64,000 bases of DNA, taken from an uncultured delta proteobacterium (GTDB lineage Bacteria > Desulfobacterota > Binatia > UBA9968). The notes beneath the pieces are model-generated. The model saw only the letters and a list, made by a program, of their open reading frames with translations, made no database searches and was not told the DNA's origin. Of this stretch, positions 2,833-24,775 are shown in pieces. The first letter of the stretch is position 1, and each line of letters starts with the position of its first letter. Both the position numbers and the translations under genes were made by a program. The stretch covers positions 96,001 to 160,000 of the forward strand of contig CAVTUQ010000019.1 of NCBI GenBank assembly GCA_963737905.1, given 5' to 3'.

Positions 2833-3780
2833 ATGAAAAAGAACTTTGTGACCTTGCTCGCACTTTTTCTTCTCCAGACCTCGGTTCATGCGGCGGACAA
2901 GATCAGGATCAGCACGCCAGCAGACGCCGCGCATTTCACCATGCATTTGGCGCAGAAAAAAGGCTTTTTGAAAGAGGAAGGCTTCGACGCGGAGTTGATC
3001 GTGATTTCAGGTCCGGTGGCCAACGTCGCGCTCAGTAACGGCGACACCGACTATTTTAGCGGTTTTGGCTCTGCCCTGCGCGCAATCCTGCAGGGGTTGC
3101 CGCTGCGGATCGTTGCCTGCTACCGGCCGACCCCACATTTCATGCTGCAGAGCCGGCCTGAGTTCAAAACTGTCAAAGATCTCAAGGGCAAGACCATCGG
3201 AGTCAGGGCATTTGGCGGAGGCCCTGATCTGGTCGGGCGGCTGATCATCAAACACTTCGGCCTCGATCCGGACAAGGATGTGAAGTGGGCTGTCGCGGGT
3301 TCAGACGAAGGCCGCTACATCAGAATGCAGCAGGGGTTGCTCGATGCCACGATAGCCACTGTTCCCACCGACTACCTCGGCAGGAAGATGGGCTTTCCGG
3401 TCATCGTGCGGTCGGAGGAGCTCTTTACCTATCCCTTCAGCGGCTTGACGACTCACATCAGGAAGATCAAAGAGAAACCGGACGAGGTCAAGCGAATTAT
3501 TCGGGCGGGAATCAAGGCCAATCGCTACATGAGGGAAAATCGTGATGGAACTATCCCGATACTGATGAGCACTTATAGGATCGACAAAGAGGTTGCCACT
3601 GCGGCCTATGATTCTTTTATCAAAGGCTTCAACCTCGACGGCAGCATGCCGGAGGACGGCTTCCGCCGGCTTCTTGACGACACCAAACGGCTTATGAAAA
3701 TCGATCGTGAGGTCGGGTTTAGTGAAGTCAGTGATTTGTCAATTCTTCGAGAGGCACAACGGGAGCTGGGAATCAAATGA
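2833..3780 (+). CDS. ABC transporter substrate-binding protein, NMT1/TauA-like
   Basis: Signal peptide, motifs KGFLKEEGFDAEL and VKDLKGKTIGV, AGGAGG RBS. Confidence 0.85.
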   Translation: MKKNFVTLLALFLLQTSVHAADKIRISTPADAAHFTMHLAQKKGFLKEEGFDAELIVISGPVANVALSNGDTDYFSGFGSALRAILQGLPLRIVACYRPTPHFMLQSRPEFKTVKDLKGKTIGVRAFGGGPDLVGRLIIKHFGLDPDKDVKWAVAGSDEGRYIRMQQGLLDATIATVPTDYLGRKMGFPVIVRSEELFTYPFSGLTTHIRKIKEKPDEVKRIIRAGIKANRYMRENRDGTIPILMSTYRIDKEVATAAYDSFIKGFNLDGSMPEDGFRRLLDDTKRLMKIDREVGFSEVSDLSILREAQRELGIK

Positions 3781-3795
3781 CCTTCTGATTAGGTG

Positions 3796-3838
3796 ACAGT
3801 GAGCAGGGGGCAGAAAAGCAGTAAGCAGCAAAAACAGG
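3796..3838. repeat. Degenerate heptamer tandem repeat (GCAG-based)
   Basis: acagtga gcagggg gcagaaa agcagta agcagca in an intergenic region. Confidence 0.45.
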
Positions 3839-3917
3839 ATTGGGGGACACCGGTGAAGAATTCGGATTCGCGACGGGAAAGGATAGCCTAAGGTAATAGA
3901 TAATACAGGAGGATGGC

Positions 3918-4922
3918 ATGAGAAATTCTCGTCTGCAGTTAGTCATTATTGCGATAGTCTTTGGCATCGTCGTGGGGTCAACACGAGGGGTAGAGGCAAA
4001 GTCCTATACCGCCTACATCTCCGATGGTCCAGACACTTCCATAGCTTATTGGCTGGCGAAAGAGATGGGGTTCTTTAAGAAACATGGCTTGGACATGGAA
4101 CTAATCTTCATCGACGGCAGTAGTCGCGGTGTCCAGAGCCTTATAGCGGGAGACTTGAGCTTTACGGATGCCGTGGGAACTTCCGCGATCAATGGCCGGC
4201 TGGCTGGCGGGGATATCGCGATCGTAAGTAGCCTGGTCAATACGCTTCCGTATTACATCATTGGCAAGCCAACGATTAGATCGCCGCAGGATCTTAAAGG
4301 GAAGTCCGCTGCCGTGCACATCCCCGGCACATCGGCAGACTTTGCCATGCGCCTTGCGCTGAAAGGCGTCGGTCTTTCTTATAAGGACATTCAGGCCATC
4401 ACCGTCGGGGGCGCCCCGGCGCGCAACGCGGCCGTGATCACGGGCAGGGTGGACTTCACGGTGGCGACCGACTCGGGAAAATTAGAAGGAGAGAAGGCGG
4501 GCCTTAAGGTCATTATAGACATGGCCAAGCTCAAAATCCCTTTTCAGTTTTCTTGCACGGTAACCACGGGAGGGATGATCCGGCAAAATCCTGATATGGT
4601 TCGCAGCATGGTAAAGGCCCTGGCCGAGGCGGTGCACTATTATAAAACCCAGAAAGAAGATGCGATCAAGGTCATGCAGAAATATACCCGTGGACAGAAT
4701 CGGACTGCCCTCGAGGGAACCTATTCCGCTTACAGAGAGCTTCTGGTCGAGGATGGCTATCCCACATTGGAAGGGCTTAAGAATACCTTGGAGATCCAAG
4801 CGTCGTTTGATCCCAAGGCTACCAAAGCCAAGGTAGAGGATTTTGTCGATGTCCGTTTCGTCGATGAACTGAGAAAGAGCGGGTTTATTGATTCACTCTA
4901 TAACCGTGAGCGGGCAAAATGA
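3918..4922 (+). CDS. ABC transporter substrate-binding protein, NMT1/TauA-like
   Basis: Signal peptide, GFFKKHGLDMELI, QDLKGK, C-terminal VDELRKSGFIDSLY. Confidence 0.85.
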   Translation: MRNSRLQLVIIAIVFGIVVGSTRGVEAKSYTAYISDGPDTSIAYWLAKEMGFFKKHGLDMELIFIDGSSRGVQSLIAGDLSFTDAVGTSAINGRLAGGDIAIVSSLVNTLPYYIIGKPTIRSPQDLKGKSAAVHIPGTSADFAMRLALKGVGLSYKDIQAITVGGAPARNAAVITGRVDFTVATDSGKLEGEKAGLKVIIDMAKLKIPFQFSCTVTTGGMIRQNPDMVRSMVKALAEAVHYYKTQKEDAIKVMQKYTRGQNRTALEGTYSAYRELLVEDGYPTLEGLKNTLEIQASFDPKATKAKVEDFVDVRFVDELRKSGFIDSLYNRERAK

Positions 4923-5117: not shown

Positions 5118-6713
5118 ATGGGTTATTTCAAGGATCTGAGAGAACATATCGCGGCGTTGGATGAAGCGGGTTTGTTGGTCAAGATCGACGAGCTGATCAA
5201 CAAGGACACAGAGTTGATGCCGTTGGTGCGGTGGCAGTTTCGCGGCCTATCGGAGGAGGAACGGCGGGCGTTTATGTTTACGAACGTGACCGACGTCAAG
5301 GGGAAAAAGTACGATATTCCTGTCGTCGTCGGAACGCTTGCCGCATCGCGGCAGATCTACGGCTTTGGGTTGCAGTGCAAACCCGAGGAGATCGTCGATC
5401 GTTGGAACAAGGCACAGAGTAATCCAATTCCGCCGAAGATCGTCGAAAAAGCCCCGGTTCAGGAAGAAGTTCATAAGGGATCATCTCTGATGGATAAAGG
5501 GGGTCTGGGCGAATTCCCGATTCCCATCTCGACCCCCGGGTACGATTGCGCGCCGTTCACCACGGCCTCGCACTGGTTCACCAAAGATCCGGAGACGGGT
5601 CTCATCAACATCGGCAACTACCGCGGCCATATCAAAAGCCCGACCAGAACCGGTGTTTTTCTCAGCTCCAGCAATCATGGTGGCTATCATTGGCGCAAGT
5701 GCCAGGAGCGGGGGATCCCACTCCAGGCCGCGCTGGTCATCGGCGCGCCGCCGCCGGTATCTTACACGGCGCCAGCACGTATACCGTTCAGCGTGAGCGA
5801 ACTCGACGTTGCCGGCGGGCTCGCCGGCGCGCCCATCGAGGTCGTGAAGTGCATTACGAACGATGTGCTGGTTCCCGCCAATGCCGAGATCGTCATCGAA
5901 GGAGAAATATCAACTGAGTTTCTGGAACCTGAAGCCCCATTCGGCGAGTCCACGGGTTACATTGCCGAGCGGCTGCTCAATCCCTACTTTGAAGTAAAGT
6001 GCATCACGCACCGAAAGAACCCGATCTTTGCCACCATTATCAGCCAAATGCCACCCAGCGAATCGAGCGTGATGCGCCAGGTGGCTGCGGAAGGAAATTA
6101 TCTCCGATTCCTACGAGACCAGTGCAATATTCCAGGCATCGTCGAAGTGGCTTTTCACAGCATCGCCGTCCGTCAGATCTGCGTCATCAAAATGAAAAAG
6201 ATCAATCAGGCCCATGTTTGGCAAGCCTTGCACAGCATGGTGGGTTACAATCCCGCTACGGGTAAGATGGTGATTGCCGTCGATGAAGATATCAACCCGC
6301 GGAATTTGGACTCTCTATTCTGGGCGCTGGCCTTTCGCATGCAGCCGCATCGCGATGTTTTGATCATTCGCAACCGTACGCCCCAAATGGATCCGTCAGC
6401 TTTCCCGCCAGGCAGGGAACTGGAAAATTCGTTGGACGAAATCGCCGGCTGCTCTGCGATGCTCATTGACGCCACGCGTAAGTGGGACTATCCGCCGGTG
6501 TCGCTACCGAAGAAAGAATTTATGGAGCATGCTAAGCAACTATGGGAACGTCTTGAGCTGCCCAAACTCAAACCGCAGGACCCGTGGTTCGGCTACAATC
6601 TCGGCCTGTGGTCCGACGAAGACGAGGAAGAAGCGCAGCTGGCCTTGAAAGGCGAGCACTATCAGACAGGGGAAAAGCGGGCGCAGCAGCGGGTGCCGGC
6701 AAAGAGGAAATAG
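5118..6713 (+). CDS. UbiD-family prFMN-dependent (de)carboxylase
   Basis: DLREHIAAL N-terminus, NIGNYR, VPANAEIVIEGEI, EAPFGE, AVDEDI, LIDATRK. Confidence 0.92.
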   Translation: MGYFKDLREHIAALDEAGLLVKIDELINKDTELMPLVRWQFRGLSEEERRAFMFTNVTDVKGKKYDIPVVVGTLAASRQIYGFGLQCKPEEIVDRWNKAQSNPIPPKIVEKAPVQEEVHKGSSLMDKGGLGEFPIPISTPGYDCAPFTTASHWFTKDPETGLINIGNYRGHIKSPTRTGVFLSSSNHGGYHWRKCQERGIPLQAALVIGAPPPVSYTAPARIPFSVSELDVAGGLAGAPIEVVKCITNDVLVPANAEIVIEGEISTEFLEPEAPFGESTGYIAERLLNPYFEVKCITHRKNPIFATIISQMPPSESSVMRQVAAEGNYLRFLRDQCNIPGIVEVAFHSIAVRQICVIKMKKINQAHVWQALHSMVGYNPATGKMVIAVDEDINPRNLDSLFWALAFRMQPHRDVLIIRNRTPQMDPSAFPPGRELENSLDEIAGCSAMLIDATRKWDYPPVSLPKKEFMEHAKQLWERLELPKLKPQDPWFGYNLGLWSDEDEEEAQLALKGEHYQTGEKRAQQRVPAKRK

Positions 6714-7309
6714 TGCCAACGAGCCAGACCATCTACGTCGATATGGATGATGTGCTGTGCGAAACAGCGCGTGGTTGCCTCGAAATCGTCGAACGCCTAT
6801 TCGGCAAACGGGTAGATTATGAGCAGCTAACAGATTTCGACCTTGGGAATTCCTGCGAGCTGAGTGCCGAAGAAACCGCCGCTCTATACTATATCGTCCA
6901 TCATCCTGACGAGCTGCTGAAGCTGCAACCCGTGGACGGAGCGATTTCAGTATTAAGTCAGTGGATTGCGGCCGGATTTGAGATTGCGATTGTCACCGGC
7001 CGGCCCCCGGCGACGTATGAACCGTCCCTTGATTGGTTGGCACGCGAGCAAGTACCGTATCATTCATTTACCGTGGTCGATAAATATCGACGGTTTACAA
7101 CCGAGAAAACTATTGCCGTCTCGTTGTCGGAATTGGCGGCACGGCAGTTCGTATTTGCAGTAGAAGACTCGGCGACGATGGCCAGGTATCTGGCTGAGGA
7201 AATGAAAGTTCCCGTGAAATTATTCGATCGGCCGTGGAATCGGACGGCTGTCGAGCATCCCAAAATTACGCGTCACAATCATTGGTTCGAGATCGCCGAA
7301 TTGCTTTGA
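6713..7309 (+). CDS. HAD-family 5'(3')-deoxyribonucleotidase-like phosphatase
   Basis: GTG start overlaps the UbiD stop (TAGTG). HAD motif I DMDDVLC, plus VTGRP, VEDS and FDRPWNR. Confidence 0.8.
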   Translation: MPTSQTIYVDMDDVLCETARGCLEIVERLFGKRVDYEQLTDFDLGNSCELSAEETAALYYIVHHPDELLKLQPVDGAISVLSQWIAAGFEIAIVTGRPPATYEPSLDWLAREQVPYHSFTVVDKYRRFTTEKTIAVSLSELAARQFVFAVEDSATMARYLAEEMKVPVKLFDRPWNRTAVEHPKITRHNHWFEIAELL

Positions 7310-7339: not shown

Positions 7340-7870
7340 TTGAGTCCTGTGCAACTTTCTATTCGCCAAGCCACAGCCCGGGATACCGACGCGGTGGCGG
7401 GCATCTTAAGGGAAGCCGCCCGCTGGCTAGAGGAGACTGGAATGCCGATGTGGCGTGACGACGAGTTGTTGCCGACTTCGATCGCTGCCGAGGTTGAATC
7501 AGGGCTATTTTTCCTGGCTGAATGTGACGGCGAAGCTGCGGGCACAATCAGGTATCAGCTTGAGGACAGGTTCTTCTGGCCCGATGCACTTCAGGATGAC
7601 TCGGCGTTCATTCATCGACTCGCTGTCAAGCGACGTTTTGCTGGCAGCGAGATTTCTTCGGCGCTGATTCTTTGGGCCATCGCACGTACACACGCGCTCG
7701 GCCGGCGCTATCTCCGCTTGGATTGTGAAGCAGCGCGTATGCGCCTGCGAGCCGTCTACGAGCGCATCGGATTTCGGTTTCACAGCAACCAGCAGGTCGG
7801 GCCCTACTTCGTCGCCAGATATGAGTACGACGTAACGGAAATTTCTCCCTTAACATGGACACCGAAATGA
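7340..7870 (+). CDS. GNAT-family N-acetyltransferase
   Basis: IHRLAVKRRFAG, LRLDC, LRAVYERIGF. Confidence 0.85.
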   Translation: MSPVQLSIRQATARDTDAVAGILREAARWLEETGMPMWRDDELLPTSIAAEVESGLFFLAECDGEAAGTIRYQLEDRFFWPDALQDDSAFIHRLAVKRRFAGSEISSALILWAIARTHALGRRYLRLDCEAARMRLRAVYERIGFRFHSNQQVGPYFVARYEYDVTEISPLTWTPK

Positions 7871-7932
7871 ACAGTGCGGTGGTTGCTGCGGCGGCAAGCG
7901 CGGCTGGGAAGTGAATCCAAGAACGACTTTAA

Positions 7933-7958
7933 CCACGAAGGCCGCGAAGAGCACGAAG
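7933..7958. repeat. Three-copy 9-mer intergenic repeat (CCACGAAGN-like)
   Basis: ccacgaagg ccgcgaaga gcacgaag between convergent genes. Confidence 0.5.
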
Positions 7959-7985
7959 TTTGCAATCCACGGATATAGAGGAGGA

Positions 7986-8969
7986 TTACCGCGCTAACTC
8001 TTTCAACGCTTCGTCCGCCAGAGAGTTGTCCACGACCATCTCGGCGGTAATGTTGGGGGGTATTTGTTTGGCGCTTTTCTCGATGTCTAGCAGCGTCTCG
8101 ACGCCTTCCAGCGGAACTCTTCCGTCGCGGCTGAAGGCGTCGACGACGACGTCGTAAGACTCCCGCGCCAACTTTTCATCCATGTTAAAACGTTTGCGGA
8201 TCACGTCAGTCGTGCCCGCCGGATTGGCACGGACGAAACGCAACGCTTCGATTTCACCGCGCAACAGTTTGCGTGCTTGCGCGCGGTTTTTGCCGATCTT
8301 ATCAAGCGTCGTTCCGAGGCCCGAAAAGGGGAAATTCAAGAGCTCGCCTGTATTCGCTAACAGAGGAAACCCTTCGCGCCTGAGAATCACCGAAAACGGC
8401 GGTGCGACGACTATGGAGTCGACGCGGCCGATTTTGAACGCTTCGTACATGACTTTTTCATCGCCGATGGCGAGGATCTTGACGTCTTTGTCGGGATCGA
8501 GGCCATAGTGACGCAGAGTGAGTCTCGTGCTGACGTAATTGGTTCCGCCAATGGCAGTGACTCCGATCGTGGCCCCTTTGAGGTCTTTAATGGTCTTGAA
8601 TTTACTATTAGCGACGAAGCTAAAAAATGGCGCTTTGATGCTCGTCGAGATCGCTCGGACCGGAGCGCCTTTGGCGGCCGAACGGATGATAGATCCGATA
8701 AGCTCCACATAGTCGATATCGCCGCTCAGCAGGGCAGCCATGGCGACGTTGGGGCGCACCTGAATGAGTTCGGCTTCTATGCCATGCTTGGTGTAAAAGC
8801 CGCGATCCTTTGCGACGAATGGCACCAAAAAGGCCAAGGAGTTGGAGGCGTAGGCGATGCGCACTTTCTCGGCTGTCTGGGCTCGAGAATCAACCGGAAC
8901 GATGAGCAGAGCCGCAATGAGAACGGCTAAAAGGTGCAACTGACAGATTTTGCTTTTCATGAGCTTCAA
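7986..8969 (-). CDS. ABC transporter substrate-binding protein, NMT1/TauA-like
   Basis: Signal peptide, GFYTKHGIEAELI, IKDLKG. Shares GLDPDKDVK and PFSGL with 2833-3780. Start may be the ATG at 8960. Confidence 0.85.
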   Translation of the reverse strand: MKLMKSKICQLHLLAVLIAALLIVPVDSRAQTAEKVRIAYASNSLAFLVPFVAKDRGFYTKHGIEAELIQVRPNVAMAALLSGDIDYVELIGSIIRSAAKGAPVRAISTSIKAPFFSFVANSKFKTIKDLKGATIGVTAIGGTNYVSTRLTLRHYGLDPDKDVKILAIGDEKVMYEAFKIGRVDSIVVAPPFSVILRREGFPLLANTGELLNFPFSGLGTTLDKIGKNRAQARKLLRGEIEALRFVRANPAGTTDVIRKRFNMDEKLARESYDVVVDAFSRDGRVPLEGVETLLDIEKSAKQIPPNITAEMVVDNSLADEALKELAR

Positions 8970-9970
8970 TTTTTTGGCGGACGGCCGTAGAGTTTGTCGA
9001 TGAAGCCGGACTTTTTGATTTCTTCGATGATGCTCGTGTCCATGAGGCTTGCCGGTTTGACGTTGCGCGCGTTGGGATGGGTCAGCGAATCAAGAGCTCC
9101 TTGAATGCCATTAGCCTCCGGGACAGGATACTCCCGCAAGCTTTTGGCCAGCCGCTCGTGGAGATCTTTCTGAACCGCCGGTTCTTTGATGCCTTCTTCT
9201 TCGAAGATCGAGTAAACAAGCTTGGGCCGGGTCTTGAATAAGTAGATCCCTTCAATAGTCGCCTGAAGATATCGCCGCAGCGTTTCGCGTTGAGTCTTAA
9301 TCATGGACAGCGGCACAGTTCCGCCGAAGCGCGCATAATCCAAAGGCAATTCCGAGAGGTCGATCAGCACTCGGCAGCAGCCGGTGGCAAGAATCTTGGC
9401 GATATTGTCCGGGCTGATCAACGCCGCATCGACATGGCCCGCGACCAATGCCGACATCCGCGTGGGCGTGTTGCCGGATTGGAGGATAGTGACCTCCTTC
9501 TCGGGATCGATTTTCCACTGACGTATGACCATCCGGGTCACGATGTCCGATGCCGAGCCTATCCGGCTTACGGCTACCCGTTTTCCCCTCAGTTCTTCCG
9601 GTTTAGCGATATCTTTCCGGGTGACGAAAATGTGTTCGAGCCGGTTAAATGTAATGCTGATGACCTTGAGATCCATGATCCCCGAGACAGATAGACCAAG
9701 CATGGCGGGCACGTCGGAGTCGGAAAGATTGATGTTGCCGCCCGCTATCGCCTGCGTCAAAACGCTGCCGCTGTTAAAATAAATCGCTTTGACGTTGACG
9801 CCGTACTTATCCCATAGTTTTTCCTTCTCGATGACACGGCGGAGATCGGTGCTGATCCCCGCTCCGCTGTAGCCCATGACGATGGAATTTGATTGCGCGA
9901 GAACGCGGTCAATTCGCGGCATCAACATTGCGGCGCAAATGGCTAGTAAAAGAAAAATGGTCTTTTTCAC
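8966..9970 (-). CDS. ABC transporter substrate-binding protein, NMT1/TauA-like
   Basis: Probable GTG start at 9970 before a signal peptide. Motifs EELRGKRVAVSRIGS and EEIKKSGFIDKLY. Confidence 0.85.
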   Translation of the reverse strand: MKKTIFLLLAICAAMLMPRIDRVLAQSNSIVMGYSGAGISTDLRRVIEKEKLWDKYGVNVKAIYFNSGSVLTQAIAGGNINLSDSDVPAMLGLSVSGIMDLKVISITFNRLEHIFVTRKDIAKPEELRGKRVAVSRIGSASDIVTRMVIRQWKIDPEKEVTILQSGNTPTRMSALVAGHVDAALISPDNIAKILATGCCRVLIDLSELPLDYARFGGTVPLSMIKTQRETLRRYLQATIEGIYLFKTRPKLVYSIFEEEGIKEPAVQKDLHERLAKSLREYPVPEANGIQGALDSLTHPNARNVKPASLMDTSIIEEIKKSGFIDKLYGRPPKN

Positions 9971-10032
9971 GTTTGACTCGGGACGATTATACCTCGCCCC
10001 TCTTTCTGTCCCTGGGAGAGGCTTAGAACCAT

Positions 10033-11475
10033 TCAATGCGCCCGCTGCAGAACTTCCTTGAGCACCGAAGCGTACTTCTTGTCGAGCTGATCTTTGAATT
10101 CATCGCTCACGGCGTTGACCGCCGGGAACTTGTCGCGCCACTCAAAGGGCCGGGTGGCGTCAATGATCGCGCGTGAGTTGAATCCTTTGCGCTCCCTGGG
10201 AATGACCGGATCCAACGGCCCGCTCCAGGCGCGCCGGATAATGTCGATATTTTCCGGCTCCGAGCGCGTGGACATTGCCCAGATGACGTCATCGGGGTTG
10301 TAAATGTCGATGTCGTCATCGACGACGATCACGTACCTGCCCAGATAGGCGCCGGGTCGACATTGGCTGGCGATCAGTGCCGCTTGCTTGGCGTGACCTG
10401 GATAGCGTTGCTTGATTTTGATGATCGAGAAGAAACGATAGCCCGCGGGATGAAGCCATACACCTTTCACATCCGGAACCCCGGCGTCCTCCAGCGCATT
10501 CCAGATCAGCGCTGAGCGTTGGATCGAACGATGAAAACCTTGACCGGCGGATGGACGCAGCGGCGGTTCACCGCACAGGACGGGATTGTTCCGATGGTAA
10601 AGCGCTTTGACGCGCACCACCGGTTCCGGCCTTGTGTCGCTGGCGTAGTAGCCGGGCCACTCGCCGAACGGTCCTTCAGGGAGGTTGTCTCCGGGGATCA
10701 TTTCTCCCTCGATAGCGATTTCCGAATAGGCTGGAATCGGCAATCCCGTGTGCGGTCCTCGTACCAGTTGGATCGGTTCGTTCAGCACGCCGCCCGCGTA
10801 GTCGAATTCGCTCATCTTGACCGGCACATCCGTGCATCCTGAGATGAACAAAAGCGGATGGTGGCCGAAGGACATGACGACGGGGCAAGATTTACCCATA
10901 TCGAAGTATTTCTTCCGATGCAGGCCGCCATGTTTTCCCGGCGAGATGTAGAGCGCCACCGCTTGAGGACCCTGGAGCATGACACGATAAGTCCCCGCAT
11001 TGACCCAACCCTCTTCCGGATCTCGGGTGATAACGAGGTCATCGGTGCCGATGTAACGGCCGCCGTCCAGTTCGTGCCAGCGGGGAATTGGAAACGCCTC
11101 CAGATCGATATCTTTTTCGACTCGATTTTCAAAAATCGGGCCGTCCTTAACATATTCCGGTTCCACGGGTTGAAAGTTTCGTACCTTTCGTCTCCAGGCT
11201 TGAATGAAGTCCGTCACTCCGAGCTTGGGGTCATTGCCCATCGCCAACGCGAGTCTCTCGATGCCATCGATCTGACTACAAAGGATTTGCATGTCTTCCC
11301 GCGCGTTCGGAATCTTTTCGAAAAGCAGCGCAGGTGAATGCTTGCTGCGCTCCAGTATCATCTCGACCAAACCGCCCATATCTTTGTCCCAGGGAACCCC
11401 TTGGATGCGGTGGAGCTGATTGATGGACTCCACCTCTTTCATCCAGACGCGTAGATCGTGATTTGCTGGATTCAT
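10033..11475 (-). CDS. UbiD-family prFMN-dependent (de)carboxylase
   Basis: NAGTYR, EIAIEGE, EGPFGEWPGYY, VVDDDID, IIDATRP. Confidence 0.93.
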   Translation of the reverse strand: MNPANHDLRVWMKEVESINQLHRIQGVPWDKDMGGLVEMILERSKHSPALLFEKIPNAREDMQILCSQIDGIERLALAMGNDPKLGVTDFIQAWRRKVRNFQPVEPEYVKDGPIFENRVEKDIDLEAFPIPRWHELDGGRYIGTDDLVITRDPEEGWVNAGTYRVMLQGPQAVALYISPGKHGGLHRKKYFDMGKSCPVVMSFGHHPLLFISGCTDVPVKMSEFDYAGGVLNEPIQLVRGPHTGLPIPAYSEIAIEGEMIPGDNLPEGPFGEWPGYYASDTRPEPVVRVKALYHRNNPVLCGEPPLRPSAGQGFHRSIQRSALIWNALEDAGVPDVKGVWLHPAGYRFFSIIKIKQRYPGHAKQAALIASQCRPGAYLGRYVIVVDDDIDIYNPDDVIWAMSTRSEPENIDIIRRAWSGPLDPVIPRERKGFNSRAIIDATRPFEWRDKFPAVNAVSDEFKDQLDKKYASVLKEVLQRAH

Positions 11476-12416
11476 CCTGGATCTCCTTCAGACCGCTGAA
11501 AAAGGCTCACCTGCGTCGTTGCGCTTGCCCGCCTCGCTACGACGTACTGCGGGGGTACGCTTCCGCTCGTCAACCTGCGCGCGCCTCGCATCTGAACCTT
11601 TTTGATCGGTAAACTCTTCATTGATTTAAGAGAGGTTTGTCGTCTGTTTCCCAGCTCCACGGCGGCCCGGTGCATGATGCCATAGAGATCCACGGCCGCC
11701 GTCGCGCAATATTCCAAATTATAGCCTTCGCGCGTGTCGGCGTAGCCGTCCTCTAAGATGCGCTGCATGACCATACGGTTGAAACTGCCATGGCCCATGA
11801 CGCCGTCATCGTGTTCTTTCAGGTCAGCCTCCTCGTGGGTCGAGAAGTAGATCGCCTGCTGCGGATTGAATCCATAGTTGGTGGTCAACGTTTTAAACCA
11901 AGTTGCGGCCCAGTGGCCGATAGGTTCCTCCGTCAGCATGGAGAACCACCACTCGGCGACCGTGCCTTCCCAAAGCAAACCACGCTTGAAGTCTAGGATC
12001 GCACGCGCTTCCGGCAGCATGGGCTCGCGCAGGATTTGATCCTTCGTCAGCCCCAACGCCTCCGCTGTCTGTAGCATGACCATCACATGGCCGGGCGGCT
12101 TCGGATGAATAAATTCATCGGCGATCTTCGCGCCAAGCGGGCCCATAAGATCCGGGTGACGTTTAAAAAAGCCGATATGTTTGTGATAAGACGCGGCGAT
12201 GAGCGTGTTGATTTCTACAGTAAAGTTGCCCCAGTTCTTGAAGAAGAGCTTGATGGCTGAGATGGGCAGCTTCCCCTCGACGAACTGGGTCATGAATTGC
12301 CCCTTGGTAACCCGTTCATCCCAACGTTGAATGACTTTCTTGTTTAGTCCGTCAACGAAGGCCTTGGCCTCGGCCGGGCTCATCCTTACGCCAAGCTTCG
12401 GTGTTGTCATGCTCAT
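11472..12416 (-). CDS. Heme-oxygenase-like diiron protein (CADD/PqqC/TenA fold), with C-terminal read-through into a repeat
   Basis: Candidate metal ligands DEFIHPKPPGH, LTEE and YFSTHEEADLKEH resemble the CADD E..H / E / HxxxDxxH set. Helical core of about 255 aa. Confidence 0.72.
   Translation of the reverse strand: MSMTTPKLGVRMSPAEAKAFVDGLNKKVIQRWDERVTKGQFMTQFVEGKLPISAIKLFFKNWGNFTVEINTLIAASYHKHIGFFKRHPDLMGPLGAKIADEFIHPKPPGHVMVMLQTAEALGLTKDQILREPMLPEARAILDFKRGLLWEGTVAEWWFSMLTEEPIGHWAATWFKTLTTNYGFNPQQAIYFSTHEEADLKEHDDGVMGHGSFNRMVMQRILEDGYADTREGYNLEYCATAAVDLYGIMHRAAVELGNRRQTSLKSMKSLPIKKVQMRGARRLTSGSVPPQYVVARRASATTQVSLFQRSEGDPG
11492..11610. repeat. MITE/REP-like element with imperfect terminal inverted repeats
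   Basis: ACCGCTGAAAAAGG at the left end and CCTTTTTGATCGGT at the right end (11/14 complementary), about 119 bp. Confidence 0.6.
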
Positions 12417-12445
12417 TGCGTGAGTTCTTGAATACTACATTGCGA

Positions 12446-12530
12446 GTTTCCAGGTGTCAGGTTTCGGGTGTAGGGGGCGTTGAGCTCACGCTCCTTGCCG
12501 TGAACTGAAACCTGAAACCCGACACCCGAC
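12446..12530. repeat. Inverted pair of heptamer arrays (GTKTCRG)n ... (CYGAMAC)n
   Basis: gtttccag gtgtcag gtttcgg gtgtagg (12446-12474) is complementary to ctgaaac ctgaaac ccgacac ccgac (12505-12530). Confidence 0.7.
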
Positions 12531-12540
12531 GTTAACCGGG

Positions 12541-13452
12541 TCACGTTCGGTAGAGATTATCAATGAAGCCGCTGTCGTCAATGCGGCGCAGATAATGGAA
12601 ATCCCACAACGCCATAGGATCGGTCTTCTCGGCCTCTTTGTCCTGCTCTATGGATATCTCATAAACGTTCTTGATCGCCGGGATGCTCGCGTAGGGCTTG
12701 GCCTGCAAAATCATTTTCAGCTCATCATATAGGTGCGTGGCCGTTTCATCGTCCAATTCGCCTTCCTCTTTATATTTGTCTTTGATGATCTTGATGGATT
12801 CGGCCCGATGGGTCTTGAGATAAGCAATGCCCTCACAGATCCCTTTGAGAAACTTGTCCACGATATCGGGGTGCTTCTCAACGAAATTAAGACAAGTGGA
12901 AACTGTGGTGAACCAGACCATCGGCAGGAACTCCACATCGATCACCTTAAGTCCCGCTCTCCGGGCGAAGATATCGCCAGGAGGATTGACAAACGCGGCG
13001 TCGACTTTGCCGTCCCGGACATATTCCCACTGGGCCGTTTCGCCGCGGAAACGCTCAATCTGACATTCTCCCAAGAGGCCGTTCTGCTTGAGAAAGAGCC
13101 AGGTGTTGAGACCTGGATGTTGGCCTTTGCTGGCAACTCGTTTGCCTCTTAGATCCGAAACTCTTGAGATACCCGAATCGGAGCGCACAACCATGCGGTG
13201 GTTGAGCAAGCTGACACTTTGACCGAGGTAGACCCACCGATCGCCCTTGGGTCGTCTAATGTAGGGTGACAGATGGTTGCCGCCGACGAACTCTACGCTG
13301 CCATTGGCGACGTTGTTGTGGGCGTCCTCCGAGCTGATGAAATAATCATACTCCACTTGCAGTCCGTGTTTTTCCCAGCTGCCGGATTCTCCGACAACGT
13401 GAAGAAACGACAAATGGCTTTCCGACCGATAAGGAAAATGTACTTTGTCCAT
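12541..13452 (-). CDS. NMT1/THI5-like SBP-fold protein lacking a signal peptide (probably cytoplasmic)
   Basis: WEKHGLQVE, SDLRGKRV and RRIDDSGFIDNLY match the other SBPs, but the protein starts MDKVHFPYRS right after an AGGAGG RBS with no hydrophobic leader. Confidence 0.75.
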   Translation of the reverse strand: MDKVHFPYRSESHLSFLHVVGESGSWEKHGLQVEYDYFISSEDAHNNVANGSVEFVGGNHLSPYIRRPKGDRWVYLGQSVSLLNHRMVVRSDSGISRVSDLRGKRVASKGQHPGLNTWLFLKQNGLLGECQIERFRGETAQWEYVRDGKVDAAFVNPPGDIFARRAGLKVIDVEFLPMVWFTTVSTCLNFVEKHPDIVDKFLKGICEGIAYLKTHRAESIKIIKDKYKEEGELDDETATHLYDELKMILQAKPYASIPAIKNVYEISIEQDKEAEKTDPMALWDFHYLRRIDDSGFIDNLYRT

Positions 13453-13504
13453 GATGAGTTCCTCCTTGTTTCTGATTAATTGATGTCATTGCGGAAATAT
13501 CACC

Positions 13505-14938
13505 TTACTTCGAGCGAGACAACTGGATTAAATCGCGGCTCCATTTTTCCGCAATTTCTTTTCTTTTTTCTGCGCTGAACTTGTTGGACGCCGGAAAACG
13601 ATCGCGCCAGAAAAAGGGCTTGCAAGCATCGATGAGCATTCGGCTCATGGTGAAATCGCCTTGGTCGCGTTTGTCCGGCGGCAGGCGCGGATCGAGGTCG
13701 GACGTCCAGGATTTGAGAATTTGAATCGACTCCGCCGGATCCACTCGAGTGCACATTGCCCAGATCACCTGTTTCAAATCCACCGGATCGATATCGTCGT
13801 CCACCGCGACATAGTAGCGATACATGCTGGCGCCGGTCTGCATGCCCGCCATAGCGGTGAGCGCGTGCAGGGCATGACCGGAGTGCCGTTGCTTGAGGGA
13901 TACGACGACCATCAACGTGTGACAGTGGCACCAGATGCCCTGAATGTCGGAGATCCCGGATTGCTCCAGGTGATCCCAGATGCGGGCCGCGAAAAGCGGA
14001 ATGCCGTATCGCTCCGTGATCGGAAGCAGAGGAGGATTGCCCAGCAGGATCGGGTCGTTCCGATGCAGGATACGTTTTACCCGAACGACACACTCTTTAC
14101 CGCGATGGGTGTAATAGCCTGGCCACTCGCCGAAAGGTCCCTCCATTTCCGACTCTTCTTCCGGCGTGGGCATTTCGCCTTCGACGACAATTTCAGACGT
14201 TGCCGGAACAGGAAGGCCGGCGAATGGGGTTCGTATCACTTGTACCGGTTCGCCGCGCAGCGCCCCGGCATAGTCATATTCGCTTGCCCCGGCCTTGGCT
14301 GCCGACGGTGCCGCTGTCCAAGTCGCGGGCTCGCAGCCCAAGACGATGGCGACCGGACATGCGCGTTTCGCTTGCCAATACTTTCGCGCTATCTGTTTGC
14401 CATGTTTATGGTCAATGATCCACAACGTGAGTCGATTCTTATCGACGACACAGGCCCGGTAGGTGCCCACATTGATCCACCCGCTGTCCGGGTCTTTGGT
14501 GATGACCATATCGCCGGTGCCGATGTAACGCCCGCCGTCGTGCTCGTGCCATCTCGGTGTGGGAAATATGCCCAGATCGATGCGATCGCTTGCCAAAACA
14601 TTTTCCGTCACCGGGCCGGAGGAAACTTCGACGGGCGAAAACGGCTTGAGACTGCGAGTCTTCTCCCGCCACGCTTTGAGAATTTCCAACTTTGGAAGTT
14701 CCGTGGGAAGACCCAGGGCCAAGGCGAAACGCCGGGCGGTGGCGAGCACGTTGGTTGCGATGCGAAAGCCCTTTGGATAACCGGGTATGTTGTCAAACAG
14801 AAGCAGCGGACCTTCCTGTTCAGCCATCAGCTCCGTCAGGCATCCGATCTCGAGGTTCCAGTGAGCGCCATCGATAGTTCTGGATTCGCCAATGCCGGCC
14901 GCGGCTTCGATAAAGGTTCCGAGATCAGAGAAAGCCAT
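13505..14938 (-). CDS. UbiD-family prFMN-dependent (de)carboxylase
   Basis: NVGTYR, EIVVEGE, EGPFGEWPGYY, AVDDDID, LIDACKP. Confidence 0.93.
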   Translation of the reverse strand: MAFSDLGTFIEAAAGIGESRTIDGAHWNLEIGCLTELMAEQEGPLLLFDNIPGYPKGFRIATNVLATARRFALALGLPTELPKLEILKAWREKTRSLKPFSPVEVSSGPVTENVLASDRIDLGIFPTPRWHEHDGGRYIGTGDMVITKDPDSGWINVGTYRACVVDKNRLTLWIIDHKHGKQIARKYWQAKRACPVAIVLGCEPATWTAAPSAAKAGASEYDYAGALRGEPVQVIRTPFAGLPVPATSEIVVEGEMPTPEEESEMEGPFGEWPGYYTHRGKECVVRVKRILHRNDPILLGNPPLLPITERYGIPLFAARIWDHLEQSGISDIQGIWCHCHTLMVVVSLKQRHSGHALHALTAMAGMQTGASMYRYYVAVDDDIDPVDLKQVIWAMCTRVDPAESIQILKSWTSDLDPRLPPDKRDQGDFTMSRMLIDACKPFFWRDRFPASNKFSAEKRKEIAEKWSRDLIQLSRSK

Positions 14939-14985
14939 TGAATATTTCTCCAGCGTTCTTCTTGTTGCTAGGTTTTCATGCGATC

Positions 14986-15080
14986 TCCTCGCCCTCCTTC
15001 GAAGGGAGAGGAATGAGGTGAGGGTAGTGCGCTTGAGGCGGAGCCCTCACCCTTGCCTCTCCCACTGCGCGGGAGAGGGA
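14986..15080. repeat. REP/BIME-like composite palindrome (CCCTCACCC..CTCTCCC..GGGAGAGG type)
   Basis: Two inverted units: cctcgccctccttcgaagggagagg...ggtgaggg and ccctcacc...cctctcccactgcgcgggagagg. Confidence 0.7.
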
Positions 15081-15198
15081 ATCGGACCGCTCACGTTCTT
15101 GTTCTTCCCGGAAAAAGTCCCAATGCTTCTCAGATCTAAGATTTCAGATTCTGGAATTGCAATCTGAGATATACCATTTAAATCCCGAAGGATACGCG

Positions 15199-15942
15199 TC
15201 AGTGCGTTGCTTTGTAGCAGCCGTCCATCATCAGCGCGTTCAAATCCGCCGGCGTGACGGCGCAATATTCGGCGGAGTAGCCGGGCCGCTCTATAATTCC
15301 TTGCTGAAGCAAGCGTACGAGTACGGTTTGCGTGACCGCGCCGTGGGCCTTGCGATCCAAGTGATCCATCGTGTCGGCTTCGTGGTGTTTGGAGAAATAG
15401 CTCGCTTGCTCCGTGGTGAGACCGTAATGGGTAGTGAGCGCGCGGAACCAATCCAAACAGGTTTCGCCAAAAGCGTGTTCCCACAAGACCGAGAACCAAT
15501 ATTCTTGAATCTGTCCGTCCACCATCAACGTCCGTTGAAAATCGGGCAGCGCCCGTGCTTCGGGCAGCATCGGAGTCAGCAGGACTTCCTCGGCGGTGAG
15601 TCCCAAGGCTTTTCCTGTGCCGATGAGGATCTGGATATGACCGGGAGGGCAGGGATGGCCAAACTCATCGAGGACCTTTTGAGTATAGACCTCCATCAAG
15701 TCGACATTCTTTACAAAGAACCACAGGTGTTTATAGAACGCCGAGGTATAGATGGAGTTGATGACGGGCACGAAGGCTCCCCAATTTTTGTAATACAATT
15801 GAATGGTTTCCTTCTTGAGCTTCCCTTCGCGCAGATCATCCATGAAGCGAGTTCTGTCGACCGTTTGCTTCCAACGGCTCTCCAACTTGGCTTTTCTTTC
15901 TGCGATAAAGTCCTCGGCCTCTCGTTCCGTACACTTGAACAT
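15199..15942 (-). CDS. Heme-oxygenase-like diiron protein (CADD/PqqC/TenA fold), paralog of 11472-12416
   Basis: DEFGHPCPPGH, LWEH, YFSKHHEADTMDH. Shares KNWG, PMLPEARA and LTTHYG with its paralog. Confidence 0.72.
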   Translation of the reverse strand: MFKCTEREAEDFIAERKAKLESRWKQTVDRTRFMDDLREGKLKKETIQLYYKNWGAFVPVINSIYTSAFYKHLWFFVKNVDLMEVYTQKVLDEFGHPCPPGHIQILIGTGKALGLTAEEVLLTPMLPEARALPDFQRTLMVDGQIQEYWFSVLWEHAFGETCLDWFRALTTHYGLTTEQASYFSKHHEADTMDHLDRKAHGAVTQTVLVRLLQQGIIERPGYSAEYCAVTPADLNALMMDGCYKATH

Positions 15943-16152
15943 CCTGGGTTTTCCTTTCTAGACGATGATCTGTAGATATGTGAGGAACCTCCCGGCTGTC
16001 AAGTAAAGCCAACCGGGCGGGGCATGGCATGTCGAGTCGGAAAAGAAGCGCAGGTTGCGATTTGGCGAGCAATCGCGATAAGATTCTAATAGCTGTATAG
16101 GTGCTCTGAACTTAAATGGCCACAATGACGGCTAGCGATGTGAGGTGTCTTT

Positions 16153-16509
16153 ATGGATTTCGTAAATCTCGATGAAATGATGGCGACGAAGAAACGGAAT
16201 ATTCATCTGTTTGGAACGGACAATTTCCGCTCTTGGATGCTCTACTTCGTTCCGGGTGACGGAACCGACATGCATTTTCACGCCAGCCCGGAGACCTTCC
16301 TGGTTCTTTCCGGGCACGGCGTAGTCAAGGGTATCAAAGGCGAGGAGAGAACCATTCAGAAGAACGAGGTAGTGTTTTTCGCGGCCAAGGATTACTACCA
16401 GATTACCAACACCGGAACGGAACCCCTGGTGCTGTTTGGCAATCGCTCGGAGGCCTTTGGCGGCCCGCATATCAAGGCCGACGGGACCGATCGCAACGTT
16501 AGGGTCTAG
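16153..16509 (+). CDS. Cupin-domain protein
   Basis: PGDGTDMHFHASPETFLVLSGHG cupin motif 1, GAGG RBS. Confidence 0.85.
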   Translation: MDFVNLDEMMATKKRNIHLFGTDNFRSWMLYFVPGDGTDMHFHASPETFLVLSGHGVVKGIKGEERTIQKNEVVFFAAKDYYQITNTGTEPLVLFGNRSEAFGGPHIKADGTDRNVRV

Positions 16510-16532
16510 CCCACGGGGCCGGAAGGTATCAA

Positions 16533-16561
16533 TTGACAACGCGCCAGCGAGTGGTTAATTT
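16533..16561 (+). promoter_or_regulatory. Sigma70-type promoter of the FmdB gene
   Basis: TTGACA-17 nt-TAATTT. Confidence 0.55.
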
Positions 16562-16595
16562 TTATCCAGTAAAACCTCTGACTTGAGGGTCTTTC

Positions 16596-16937
16596 ATGCC
16601 TATCTACGAGTATAACTGCCAGAAATGTGGAACATTTGAAACCACCCAAAAGATTACCGAAAAGCCATTGACTAGATGCCCTACGTGTAAGGGTAAGGTC
16701 AAAAAACTAATTTCCAATACGTCCTTTCAGCTGAAGGGTACCGGCTGGTACGTCACCGATTACGCCCGCAAAGAGAACGGTAAAGGAGCCGGCAAAGGCG
16801 AAAACGGAGCCAAATCTTCCACCGAGTCCAAAGAATCCAAAGACACTAAGAGCGGGGCCAAAGCCGAATCCAAAACCGAGAGTTCCTCGGGCAAAAGCGA
16901 AAAGTCCTCTTCCACACCCAGCTCCACGTCGGCTTAA
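16596..16937 (+). CDS. FmdB-family zinc-ribbon protein with a low-complexity Ser/Lys tail
   Basis: [31 protein letters not shown]. Confidence 0.92.
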
Positions 16938-16986
16938 CAGCCTCCAAATTTGGGCCGCACGACGCGGCCTTTTCGAGAGTAAATAA

Positions 16987-17020
16987 ACAAGCGGCGGTTT
17001 CATCCGCCGCTTGTGTTTTT
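16987..17020 (+). terminator. Intrinsic terminator
   Basis: 11-bp stem ACAAGCGGCGG / CCGCCGCTTGT followed by GTTTTT. Confidence 0.8.
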
Positions 17021-17132
17021 CACGCGGGCACACTTTAGCACCTCTCAACAAGCGAAAGGGTGTAGATTTGAATTTTGTTTTTCGCTATAGGTGAGGAGTC
17101 AAGCAAAAAACTGTTGAAGGAGGATTTTTTCG

Positions 17133-17871
17133 ATGGCTCAGACCATAGATCATATTGTCGATCCCAATGATACGAGCCTGACGTCGGAGATGGTGCAGTT
17201 TACGAGCACCGGGGGAAACATCAACGCATATGTATCCCGTCCGAAGGATGGCAAGAATTTGGGCACCGTGGTCGTGATTCACGAGAACCGAGGGACTGGT
17301 AGGGCATATTAAAGACGTCGCGCGGCACTTCGCCAAAGACGGCTTCGCCGCAATTGCTGTCGACTGCATGAGCCGGATAGGCGGCAGCGATAAGTGGAAC
17401 GGCAGCGACGAGGCCACCAAAGAGATTCAAAAGCTGAACGGTGACATGGTGGCGGAGGATCTCACGGCGGCCGTGGCGTATATGAAAAAGCAAAATTACG
17501 TGAACGGTAAATGCGGCGTCGTTGGTTACTGCTGGGGCGGCGGTCAATCACTAAACTTCGCCACCAAGTGTAAAGACCTCAATGCCGCGGTGGTGTACTA
17601 CGGCCGAAATCCCAATCCCCTGGAATCCGTAGCGAACATTCCCTGCGCCGTCATGGGTAACTATGGGGAAGACGATCCGAATATCATGCCCGGTGTCGAG
17701 CCGCTAAAGGCTGCACTGGGAAAGGCCGGCAAGAGTTTTGACGTTAAAGTTTATCCGGGCGCCAAGCATGCGTTTAACAACAATACCAACGCGGACCGCT
17801 ATCATCCAGAGGCGGCGAAGGATGCCTGGGCGAGGACGGTAGGATTTTTTAAGAAGAACTTGGCGGCTTAA
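17133..17871 (+). CDS. Dienelactone hydrolase family protein (+1 frameshift near 17293)
   Basis: AGGAGG RBS. VVVIHENRG in the first frame, then HIKDVARHFA, GYCWGG nucleophile and YPGAKHAF. Confidence 0.85.
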
Positions 17872-24704: not shown

Positions 24705-24714
24705 CGTGGTTCTG

Positions 24715-24746
24715 AAAAAAAAGGGCAGGGAGGCAAACCCTGCCCT
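24715..24746 (-). terminator. Intrinsic terminator between the UbiD and CoA-transferase genes
   Basis: Minus strand reads AGGGCAGGG-TTTGCCT-CCCTGCCCT-TTTTTTT. Confidence 0.75.
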
Positions 24747-24775
24747 CTAACTAACTATGCAGGCGCGGTCCGAAG

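Follow-up and report, generated by a model that had tools for sequence, protein, structure and literature searches.

Heme-oxygenase-like putative dimetal proteins beside UbiD-type decarboxylases: a candidate aromatic acid pathway in an uncultured member of the Binatia

Why would genes for a heme-oxygenase-like protein and a UbiD-type decarboxylase be paired twice in one gene cluster, and what might the paired products do? The question is raised by a 64,000-nucleotide stretch of DNA from an uncultured delta proteobacterium (GTDB lineage Desulfobacterota; Binatia; UBA9968), positions 96,001 to 160,000 of contig CAVTUQ010000019.1 in assembly GCA_963737905.1, hereafter the window. A first-pass annotation had described seven minus-strand genes and a divergent cupin gene, among them two genes for putative heme-oxygenase-like diiron oxidases/oxygenases (HDOs), HDO1 and HDO2, each followed by a gene for a UbiD of the prenylated flavin mononucleotide (prFMN) type, UbiD1 and UbiD2; all of these open reading frames (ORFs) were found at the coordinates claimed (Table 1). 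We find that the HDOs belong to an uncharacterized clade of the heme-oxygenase-like dimetal superfamily in conserved partnership with prFMN decarboxylases and gentisate-type dioxygenases. The explanation that we favor, with about even confidence, places the region within an island devoted to the aerobic catabolism of imported aromatic or heteroaromatic carboxylic acids, in which an oxidation step by the HDO would be coupled to decarboxylation and ring cleavage.

The partnership is evident from the linkage of HDO and UbiD genes across genomes. A scan for relatives, with one genome taken per species, gave 239 relatives, and in the best 80 loci ORFs were called and scored against the window proteins. 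These loci, which are mostly from metagenome-assembled genomes (MAGs) labeled Candidatus Binatia or Deltaproteobacteria with about 17 from MAGs labeled Alphaproteobacteria, contained 101 HDO genes scoring at least 200 bits, and 66 of those genes had at least 2 kb on both flanks. A UbiD gene was present within 400 bp of 34 of the 66, within 2 kb of 53 and within 8 kb of 58, counts that do not represent independent events because many of the loci are orthologous, syntenic copies. For comparison, randomly chosen 750-bp positions in the window's genome, where 43 UbiD ORFs reach 100 bits or more, gave 1.9% (400 bp), 3.7% (2 kb) and 8.9% (8 kb), and the enrichment of HDO homologs next to UbiD on which the initial proposal depended is borne out by the contrast between 53/66 within 2 kb and 3.7% at random.

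In a maximum-likelihood tree of 98 HDOs, genes of the HDO1 clade are followed by UbiD1-type genes and those of the HDO2 clade by UbiD2-type genes. A third, distant HDO clade is encoded directly after genes similar to UbiD3, a third UbiD paralog in the window, and before a zinc-ribbon gene (loci L060, L063, L071, L072, L075, and L078), while in a clade from MAGs labeled Alphaproteobacteria the HDO gene is situated either between two UbiD genes or before a gene for a leaderless solute-binding-like protein, SBPc, and a UbiD gene. The HDO-UbiD link is carried by at least four or five distinct arrangements. Within the window HDO1 and HDO2 have 42% identity over 238 amino acids, and UbiD1 and UbiD2 have 40% over 479, as expected for the diverged paralogs that had been proposed. 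Together with the clade-to-clade correspondence of HDOs and UbiDs, this is consistent with the earlier view that the pairing has been selected and is not a fresh copy; it is old and conserved.

We found no characterized HDO-UbiD partnership in the full-text literature, as the first-pass annotation had expected, although subscription-only papers and bioRxiv supplements were outside the search. The searchable full-text literature also had no report that combined a heme oxygenase-like protein with gentisate and a decarboxylase, and nothing on the pairing was apparent, by title or the start of the abstract, in the literature on prFMN and diiron, on genome neighborhoods of heme-oxygenase-like diiron proteins or, among the matches listed, on UbiD and PqqC. 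The only match for UbiD, gentisate and prFMN together concerns phthaloyl-CoA decarboxylase, and no paper on UbiD in Binatia was retrieved by a full-text search.

The designation of the two proteins as HDOs rests on fold and ligands, because the curated family models were not reached. HDO1 and HDO2 scored 26.3 and 26.2 bits against Haem_oxygenas_2 (PF14518), below its gathering threshold of 28.9, a value that some paralogs and homologs exceed (32.7 bits for L097:8067-8843 and 37.3 bits for L099:8080-8823); precomputed PF14518 matches are on record for most database homologs. The NCBIfam model for CADD, TIGR04305, gave 18.9 and 19 bits against a cut-off of 200, and TENA_THI-4 (PF03070) gave 16.5 bits for HDO2 against a threshold of 22 and no match for HDO1, so that neither protein would be assigned to the CADD or TenA families by these models. 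When solved chains were searched by sequence with HDO1, only the two sets of Chlamydia CADD chains were detected at E ≤ 0.001 (E 5e-4). The AlphaFold 2 (AF2) model of HDO1, for which 23 homologs were the input, is all-helical, with a predicted local distance difference test (pLDDT) score of 93.8 and a predicted template modeling score of 0.90, and has the heme-oxygenase-like fold of the HDO superfamily. Its top Foldseek matches were to CADD (template modeling scores 0.72-0.73 by query and 0.82-0.83 by target), followed by PqqC, FlcD, TenA, UndA and BesC. The possibility raised at the outset that these were plain TenA-like proteins is not supported by this model, which is closest to CADD, with PqqC and TenA chains as weaker matches.

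Six residues of HDO1 (E93, H102, E155, H186, D190, and H194) are invariant in an alignment of 23 sequences that includes members down to 39% identity. In a HMMER alignment the first five correspond to positions 81, 88, 142, 174 and 178 of CADD (1rcw), and CADD position 181 aligns with D193, one residue ahead of the invariant H194. We take these six CADD positions to be its metal ligands. The three histidine and three carboxylate positions typical of the HDO superfamily are therefore present at the sequence level, and the CADD-like ligand set that had been noted in both HDOs is upheld, with its sixth position shifted by one residue relative to CADD. We infer that the HDOs bind metal and use O2.

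The HDO clade is small and sharply delimited: of the 1.84 billion cluster representatives covered by a profile search, 297 were matched at E ≤ 0.001 and 58 at E ≤ 1e-30. Five representatives (P0116, P0120, P0126, P0140, and P0209) are double-HDO fusions of ~480-520 amino acids, in which the ligand set is wholly or mostly retained in the N-terminal half and largely lost from the C-terminal half. These fusions look like pseudo-dimeric HDOs and suggest two paired domains as the working unit. HDO2 itself has an unusual feature in its final ~57 residues, a low-complexity tail not found in the 22 other aligned sequences. Contigs from two DNA runs skip 151-171 bases here, from ~11476-11495 to 11647-11648, and have 29 or 76 other letters instead; the tail is therefore encoded by DNA that close relatives are without. 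This stretch (11476-11648), bordered by the conserved end of HDO2 on one side and the start of UbiD2 on the other, happens to be open in frame. A tblastn search of a plasmid collection with HDO1 produced no match, and in a protein atlas homologs were found only in unnamed or automatically named clusters to which no function is attached, with Candidatus Binatota as the commonest phylum.

UbiD1 and UbiD2 each have the Pfam domains UbiD_N, UbiD and UbiD_C, with core domain scores of 202 and 209 bits, and both exceed the TIGR00148 cut-off of 244.85 (276.6 and 250.6 bits, respectively), with UbiD3 just below it (241.6 bits). Residues N156, R161, H179, E220, E266 and E271, which we equate with the metal and prFMN ligands and the catalytic Arg and Glu residues of Fdc1, are invariant across 23 UbiDs, UbiD2 and UbiD3 among them. 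Based on these invariant residues, UbiD1, UbiD2 and UbiD3 look catalytically competent and not like degenerate subunits. The best solved chains for UbiD3 are 6h6x and 6h6v (171 bits), presumably the furandicarboxylate decarboxylase HmfF. The nearest solved relative of UbiD1 is PDB 7PDA (598.9 bits, E 8e-179, residues 5-468), which UbiD2 matches with 339.4 bits. According to a JBC paper, 7PDA is PhdA, the phenazine-1-carboxylate decarboxylase of Mycolicibacterium fortuitum, an enzyme that decarboxylates a tricyclic heteroaromatic acid.

The best NCBIfam match of both UbiDs is the beta subunit of phenylphosphate carboxylase, with 281 and 296.4 bits against a cut-off of 468.95, and the best score for the alpha subunit was 183.7 bits against 564.6 (TIGR02723/TIGR02724), so that these models do not place either protein in the family. 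An anaerobic enzyme resembling phenylphosphate carboxylase was set aside on the basis of these scores and of the two heme-copper oxidases encoded in the window's genome. As a separate observation, UbiD3 is followed by an overlapping gene for a HAD/NT5C-like hydrolase, and the adjacent pair is also present in loci L015, L028 and L029; it is reminiscent of the HAD-type phosphatase subunit of phenylphosphate carboxylase.

The wider context of the HDOs includes ring-cleavage and transport genes. In many HDO1 loci, such as L002 and L011, a gene for a bicupin of ~350 amino acids lies between HDO1 and UbiD1. The bicupin scores 277-300 bits against the models for gentisate and 5-aminosalicylate 1,2-dioxygenase, short of their cut-offs of 442 and 650, and it is encoded within 400 bp of 15 of the 66 HDOs. 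TctC, TctA and TctB genes precede HDO2 in L011, and L013, L023 and L031 also have phmmer matches to them upstream of HDO2. The cupin, zinc-ribbon and dienelactone-hydrolase-family (DLH) genes are conserved upstream of HDO1 orthologs. The FmdB-type zinc-ribbon gene is tied to two phylogenetically distant HDO clades, being divergent from HDO1-type genes and directly downstream of the UbiD3-linked HDO genes, and its product is a possible redox or regulatory partner.

HDO genes that have no UbiD neighbor are likewise found in surroundings suggestive of aromatic-acid metabolism. In L039 the order is Rieske oxygenase, HDO, bicupin and TctA/B, with LigB and Amidohydro_2 genes nearby, and a locus in the window's own genome (G000:C12:107333-113600, equivalent to L097:8067-14336) has, in this order, genes for an HDO, an NMT1-type solute-binding protein (SBP), a bicupin, an EutA-like protein and two tandem, more distant Haem_oxygenas_2 proteins. 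Eight loci without a UbiD neighbor have genes for an HDO, a DLH protein, an arylmalonate-decarboxylase-like (Amdase-like) protein and an SBP. Contig C15 of the window's genome has Amidohydro_2, UbiD and HDO genes together. The partners that recur beside the HDOs are decarboxylases from three families with no relation to one another, together with a ring-cleavage enzyme of the gentisate type, a hydrolase and components for carboxylate uptake.

The window's genome (6.7 Mb, 87% complete) has ~45 UbiD ORFs, seven full HDO paralogs, ~300 NMT1-type SBP ORFs, 51 TctC-like and 59 Amidohydro_2-like ORFs and 23 bicupin matches, at least 11 of them strong. Two UbiD genes within 6 kb are less remarkable in this genome, since it holds so many UbiDs and NMT1-type SBPs, and the inventory of UbiD, NMT1-type, TctC and bicupin genes suggests a specialist in aromatic carboxylates. 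The UbiD expansion is a feature of the order, as all 15 of its sampled genomes have at least 23 scored matches (26-72 candidates each), compared with only two of 106 other genomes of the class, which have one and three matches. As a source of (de)carboxylases these genomes are extensive and as yet untapped. Among the 15 genomes of the order, 11 had HDOs, with up to 10 paralogs per genome, and none was found in 106 others of the class or in 150 others of the phylum.

Based on these findings we propose the following scheme, which we favor at the even confidence stated above. The periplasmic NMT1-type binding proteins, joined in orthologous clusters by a TctCAB transporter, would capture the acid, and the PhdA-like UbiD1 and UbiD2 would remove its ring carboxylate, the reverse reaction being possible but less likely. 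Each adjacent CADD-like HDO would act as a dinuclear-metal, O2-activating oxidase or oxygenase on the same small molecule, hydroxylating or otherwise oxidizing the ring or a substituent either before or after decarboxylation. The oxidized product would then pass to a gentisate-dioxygenase-like bicupin, which is encoded in orthologous clusters and elsewhere in the genome, and a dienelactone-hydrolase-type enzyme would act downstream. The two HDO-UbiD modules, as diverged paralogs, would probably serve two related substrates or two successive steps. We infer both the order of the steps and the class of substrate. A substrate-specific pathway enzyme is favored because several HDO paralogs are tied to specific enzyme clades in clusters that combine transport with ring cleavage, and the HDO does not appear to be a general UbiD or prFMN accessory because most UbiDs, and whole UbiD-rich genomes, are without an HDO and because HDOs also occur with bicupins and non-UbiD decarboxylases. 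Of the interpretations offered in the first-pass annotation, the oxidation of an imported aromatic acid beside its (de)carboxylation fits this wider context best.

Several observations weigh against this proposal. The window cluster itself has neither a bicupin nor a Tct transporter, so that the pathway is assembled from orthologous loci, and no remnant of a bicupin gene was detected by tblastn in the spacer between HDO1 and UbiD1. Nor do the surrounding genes include one for a reductase or for any obvious electron donor to a diiron oxygenase, and the zinc-ribbon protein is only a guess for that role. We know of no characterized HDO that acts on arenes in catabolism, the known enzymes acting on amino acids, fatty acids or their own protein. 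The 80 loci are largely orthologous syntenic copies with non-independent counts and comprise about five distinct arrangement types. Moreover, the linkage to UbiD (53/66 within 2 kb) is far stronger than that to the bicupin (15/66), which suits a UbiD-directed role too. Indeed, readings in which the HDO serves the cofactor or is a subunit stay alive because the UbiD linkage is the tightest, because the maturase of PhdA is missing here and because there is no evident electron donor. We consider it unlikely that PhdA-like prFMN decarboxylases have in the CADD-like protein an O2-dependent partner of their own, either a new, non-homologous maturase or repair enzyme in the place of PhdC or a true subunit; if true, the dimetal chemistry of heme-oxygenase-like proteins would for the first time be connected with the UbiD/UbiX cofactor system.

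The version of this idea in which the HDO is a maturase or repair enzyme of the neighboring UbiD, using O2 to convert prFMNH2 or a dead-end prFMN radical to the active iminium form as a non-homologous analog of PhdC, is distinctly unlikely in our view. It would account for the tight and conserved adjacency, an O2-activating metal site would suit oxidative maturation, and none of the four Flavin_Reduct (PF01613) genes of the genome adjoins a UbiD gene. A further point in its favor is that a requirement for a dedicated maturase has been shown for a single UbiD, namely PhdA, the nearest characterized relative of UbiD1; this maturase, PhdC, has an HpaC-like flavin-reductase fold, and reports of it are confined to Actinomycetota (PMC13040415). 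Yet only three of the seven HDO paralogs in the window's genome are within 8 kb of a UbiD, against ~45 UbiD paralogs, and in a sister family of the same order all six genomes have at least 23 UbiDs, with no HDO in four of them and a single copy in two. Where no UbiD is encoded within 8 kb, HDO genes adjoin those for bicupin, DLH and Amdase-like proteins, and the clade-specific partners of several paralogs fit substrate specificity better than a shared cofactor. The maturation or repair of prFMN proposed in the first-pass annotation is disfavored by these HDOs without UbiD and UbiD-rich genomes without HDO. An arrangement in which HDO and UbiD, and perhaps HDO1 with HDO2 and UbiD1 with UbiD2, are subunits of one hetero-oligomer like the multi-subunit UbiD-type carboxylases of anaerobes is improbable. 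Phenylphosphate carboxylase combines two UbiD paralogs with a phosphatase subunit of the HAD type, and its beta subunit is the best NCBIfam match of both UbiDs; the HDO and UbiD reading frames are close or overlapping in several arrangements, with true intergenic gaps underestimated because frames were measured from stop to stop; and the natural double-HDO fusions of ~510 amino acids indicate that HDO domains can work as a pair. Against a complex of this kind, the phenylphosphate carboxylase scores are far under the cut-offs of 469 and 565, a bicupin gene splits the HDO1-UbiD1 adjacency in many orthologous loci, HDOs exist without UbiD, and both UbiDs keep full sets of catalytic residues, with PhdA described as a homo-hexamer in PMC10850782. 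A complex prediction for UbiD1 and HDO1, both supplied as alignments, gave an ipSAE of 0.00 in both runs, which were made without controls and support no verdict.

Two further possibilities concern the chemistry of the HDO. In thiamin salvage TenA works with NMT1-type binding proteins, many HDO homologs are labeled "PQQ biosynthesis protein C" in public sources, PqqC and TenA chains come next after CADD in Foldseek, and HDO2 has a weak TENA_THI-4 match of 16.5 bits. These points would fit a TenA/PqqC-like cofactorless hydrolase or oxidase acting on a ring-fission product, a pyrimidine or a quinone, in which the histidines and carboxylates have acid-base or binding roles. We regard such an enzyme as quite improbable, since the invariance of the six CADD-type ligand positions in 23 sequences is typical of a metal site and the TenA and PqqC matches are weaker than those to CADD by both sequence and structure, with TENA_THI-4 under its cut-off. 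The fact that CADD is the nearest solved relative by sequence and fold also raises the prospect of a self-sacrificial synthase of the CADD type, producing an aminobenzoate-like metabolite to be processed by UbiD, which we rate as very improbable. The HDOs score 19 bits against the CADD model cut-off of 200, CADD position 152, which we take to be the amine-donor lysine, aligns with W165 of HDO1, and up to 10 paralogs per genome in catabolic contexts are unlike a single-turnover vitamin synthase. If the catabolic pathway that we favor is correct, an HDO clade tied to prFMN decarboxylases and gentisate-type ring cleavage would extend the superfamily into aromatic catabolism with defined partners; to our knowledge heme-oxygenase-like dimetal enzymes have so far been characterized almost only in biosynthesis. 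For PhdA-like enzymes, whose activation poses practical difficulties (PMC13040415), the HDO is in addition a candidate accessory protein.

Table 1. Positions of the HDO, UbiD and neighboring features in the window.
Feature	Position	Strand	Description	Basis
HDO1	15199-15942	-	247 aa; CADD-like heme-oxygenase-fold, putative diiron (or Fe/Mn) oxidase/oxygenase	ORF, fold, ligands
UbiD1	13505-14938	-	477 aa; PhdA-like prFMN-type (de)carboxylase	UbiD N, core, C domains
Spacer HDO1/UbiD1	14939-15198		260 bp, palindrome-rich by eye; bicupin gene here in many orthologous loci	
SBPc	12541-13452	-	303 aa; leaderless NMT1/THI5-like, type II binding-protein fold	NMT1 41.8 bits
HDO2	11472-12416	-	314 aa; HDO1 paralog, ligand set retained; tail ~11472-11645	
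UbiD2	10033-11475	-	480 aa; prFMN-type (de)carboxylase	UbiD N, core, C domains
SBP2	8966-10036	-	NMT1/SsuA-like solute-binding protein	NMT1 38.8 bits; SsuA_fam 56.9 bits (under cut-off)
SBP3	7986-8969	-	NMT1/SsuA-like solute-binding protein	NMT1 64 bits; NMT1_2 64.4 bits
Single-domain cupin, divergent from HDO1	16153-16509	+	118 aa	Cupin_2 43.8 bits
FmdB-type zinc-ribbon protein	16596-16937	+	113 aa; CxxC...CxxC, Ser/Lys-rich tail	Zn_ribbon_8 57.9 bits; TIGR02605 71.6 bits
DLH-family gene	17134-17871	+	Frameshifted	DLH 125.9 bits on ORF 17368-17871
UbiD3	5118-6713	+	Third UbiD paralog	Pfam/NCBIfam matches
HAD/NT5C-like hydrolase	6584-7309	+	Adjoins UbiD3	NT5C 40 bits
Two further NMT1-type SBP genes	2833-4922	+	Upstream of UbiD3	NMT1 53.8 and 81.1 bits

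All three minus-strand SBP-like proteins match Pfam NMT1. SBP2 and SBP3 have hydrophobic N-terminal leaders as read by eye only. The leaderless character attributed to SBPc was confirmed, as SBPc, like its orthologs, begins with MDKV..F and lacks a hydrophobic leader; judged by this feature, SBPc is probably not a transport receptor and is expected to be cytoplasmic. A sequence search of solved structures with SBPc gave no match at E ≤ 0.01. Its AF2 model (pLDDT 90.1) had as top Foldseek matches 3qsl, Thi5, ThiY, SsuA and PqqT, which are generic SsuA/ThiY/Thi5/PqqT binding-protein folds that indicate no specific function. A Pfam scan of the window detected no permease or ATPase gene adjacent to the SBP genes.

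UbiD3 and its two NMT1-type SBP genes are part of the same neighborhood as the HDO-UbiD genes, and a GNAT gene is also on the plus strand on this side. An IS110-family transposase gene split into two ORFs (DEDD_Tnp_IS110 and Transposase_20; 1411-2429, minus strand) is situated just upstream of this SBP/UbiD3 block. Farther along the window, at 22219-26350 on the minus strand, two family III CoA-transferase genes adjoin a fourth, more divergent UbiD (24776-26350; core 96.5 bits), a layout that is reminiscent of modules of succinyl-CoA:phthalate CoA-transferase and phthaloyl-CoA decarboxylase. A scan of 7700-17200 found three promoter-like sites (5.4 expected) and 13 terminator-like sites (11.4 expected), the sole standout of the terminator scan being a hairpin with an 11-bp stem and a T run at 16987-17014, 3' of the zinc-ribbon gene.

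In the DLH gene the N-terminal frame from 17134 stops at ~17311, and the downstream ORF matches the Pfam model from profile position 64 onward. The extra base at 17295 that breaks the gene is absent from the contigs of all four public runs compared, and the frameshift is therefore an assembly error or strain-specific. Metagenome runs from soil and fresh water contain parts of the window stretch. In two soil metatranscriptome runs of a single study there are contigs 90-99% alike over parts of SBP3, UbiD2, SBPc, UbiD1, the zinc-ribbon gene and the DLH gene, with no coverage of HDO1 or HDO2 in the contigs of these two runs; they show neither expression nor its absence, because they are relatives' contigs in an RNA library.

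The window cluster resembles phenylphosphate carboxylase in its best NCBIfam match, in having two UbiD paralogs in one operon and in the HAD/NT5C-like gene beside UbiD3, and differs in its scores (281-296 bits against a cut-off of 469) and in the heme-copper oxidases of its organism. The phd operon comprises phdA, a UbiX gene (phdB) and the gene for the maturase PhdC with its flavin-reductase fold, as given in PMC13040415. Both systems have a prFMN-type UbiD, and UbiD1 is highly similar to PhdA, whereas the UbiD genes of the window adjoin those for an HO-like protein and a cytoplasmic NMT1-like protein instead of PhdB and PhdC. No PF02441 (UbiX) or PF01613 gene was found in or next to the window cluster, which is not a phdABC-type operon, and the first-pass expectation that the cluster is unlike a characterized pathway agrees with this mismatch to the operon of its nearest characterized UbiD. 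The genome has two PF02441 matches, one of which, outside the window at C8:221289-221801, is in a 252-amino-acid open frame that is UbiX-like in size, although other flavoproteins are possible.

The gentisate and salicylate ring-cleavage pathways, with gentisate 1,2-dioxygenase and the 5-aminosalicylate dioxygenase MabB, have their likeness in the bicupin encoded directly after HDO1 in orthologous clusters. The usual flavin or Rieske hydroxylase, isomerase and FAH-type hydrolase of these pathways were not seen in the cluster, and the window's own cluster either lost or never had the bicupin. Among the HDOs, UndA, BesC and FlcD share the fold family of HDO1 (Foldseek E 1e-4 to 1e-3), with a presumed site of three histidines and three carboxylates, whereas no sequence similarity of UndA, BesC, FlcD/FlcE or SznF to HDO1 was detectable in the solved-chain search and none was reported next to UbiD in the literature searched. 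These other characterized HDOs are known to act in biosynthesis, on amino acids or fatty acids. The closest solved relative is CADD (CT610) of Chlamydia trachomatis, an HO-like dimetal 4-aminobenzoate synthase (1rcw, 8va9), which has its fold in common with HDO1 and is its best solved chain (E 5e-4). The two proteins are ~16% identical, with five of six ligand positions aligned exactly and the sixth one residue off, and in HDO1 an insertion of two residues (the PxPPGH loop) separates the first Glu from the first His. The HDOs differ further from CADD in having Trp in HDO1 at the position of CADD Lys152, and in being multi-copy proteins encoded in catabolic gene clusters.

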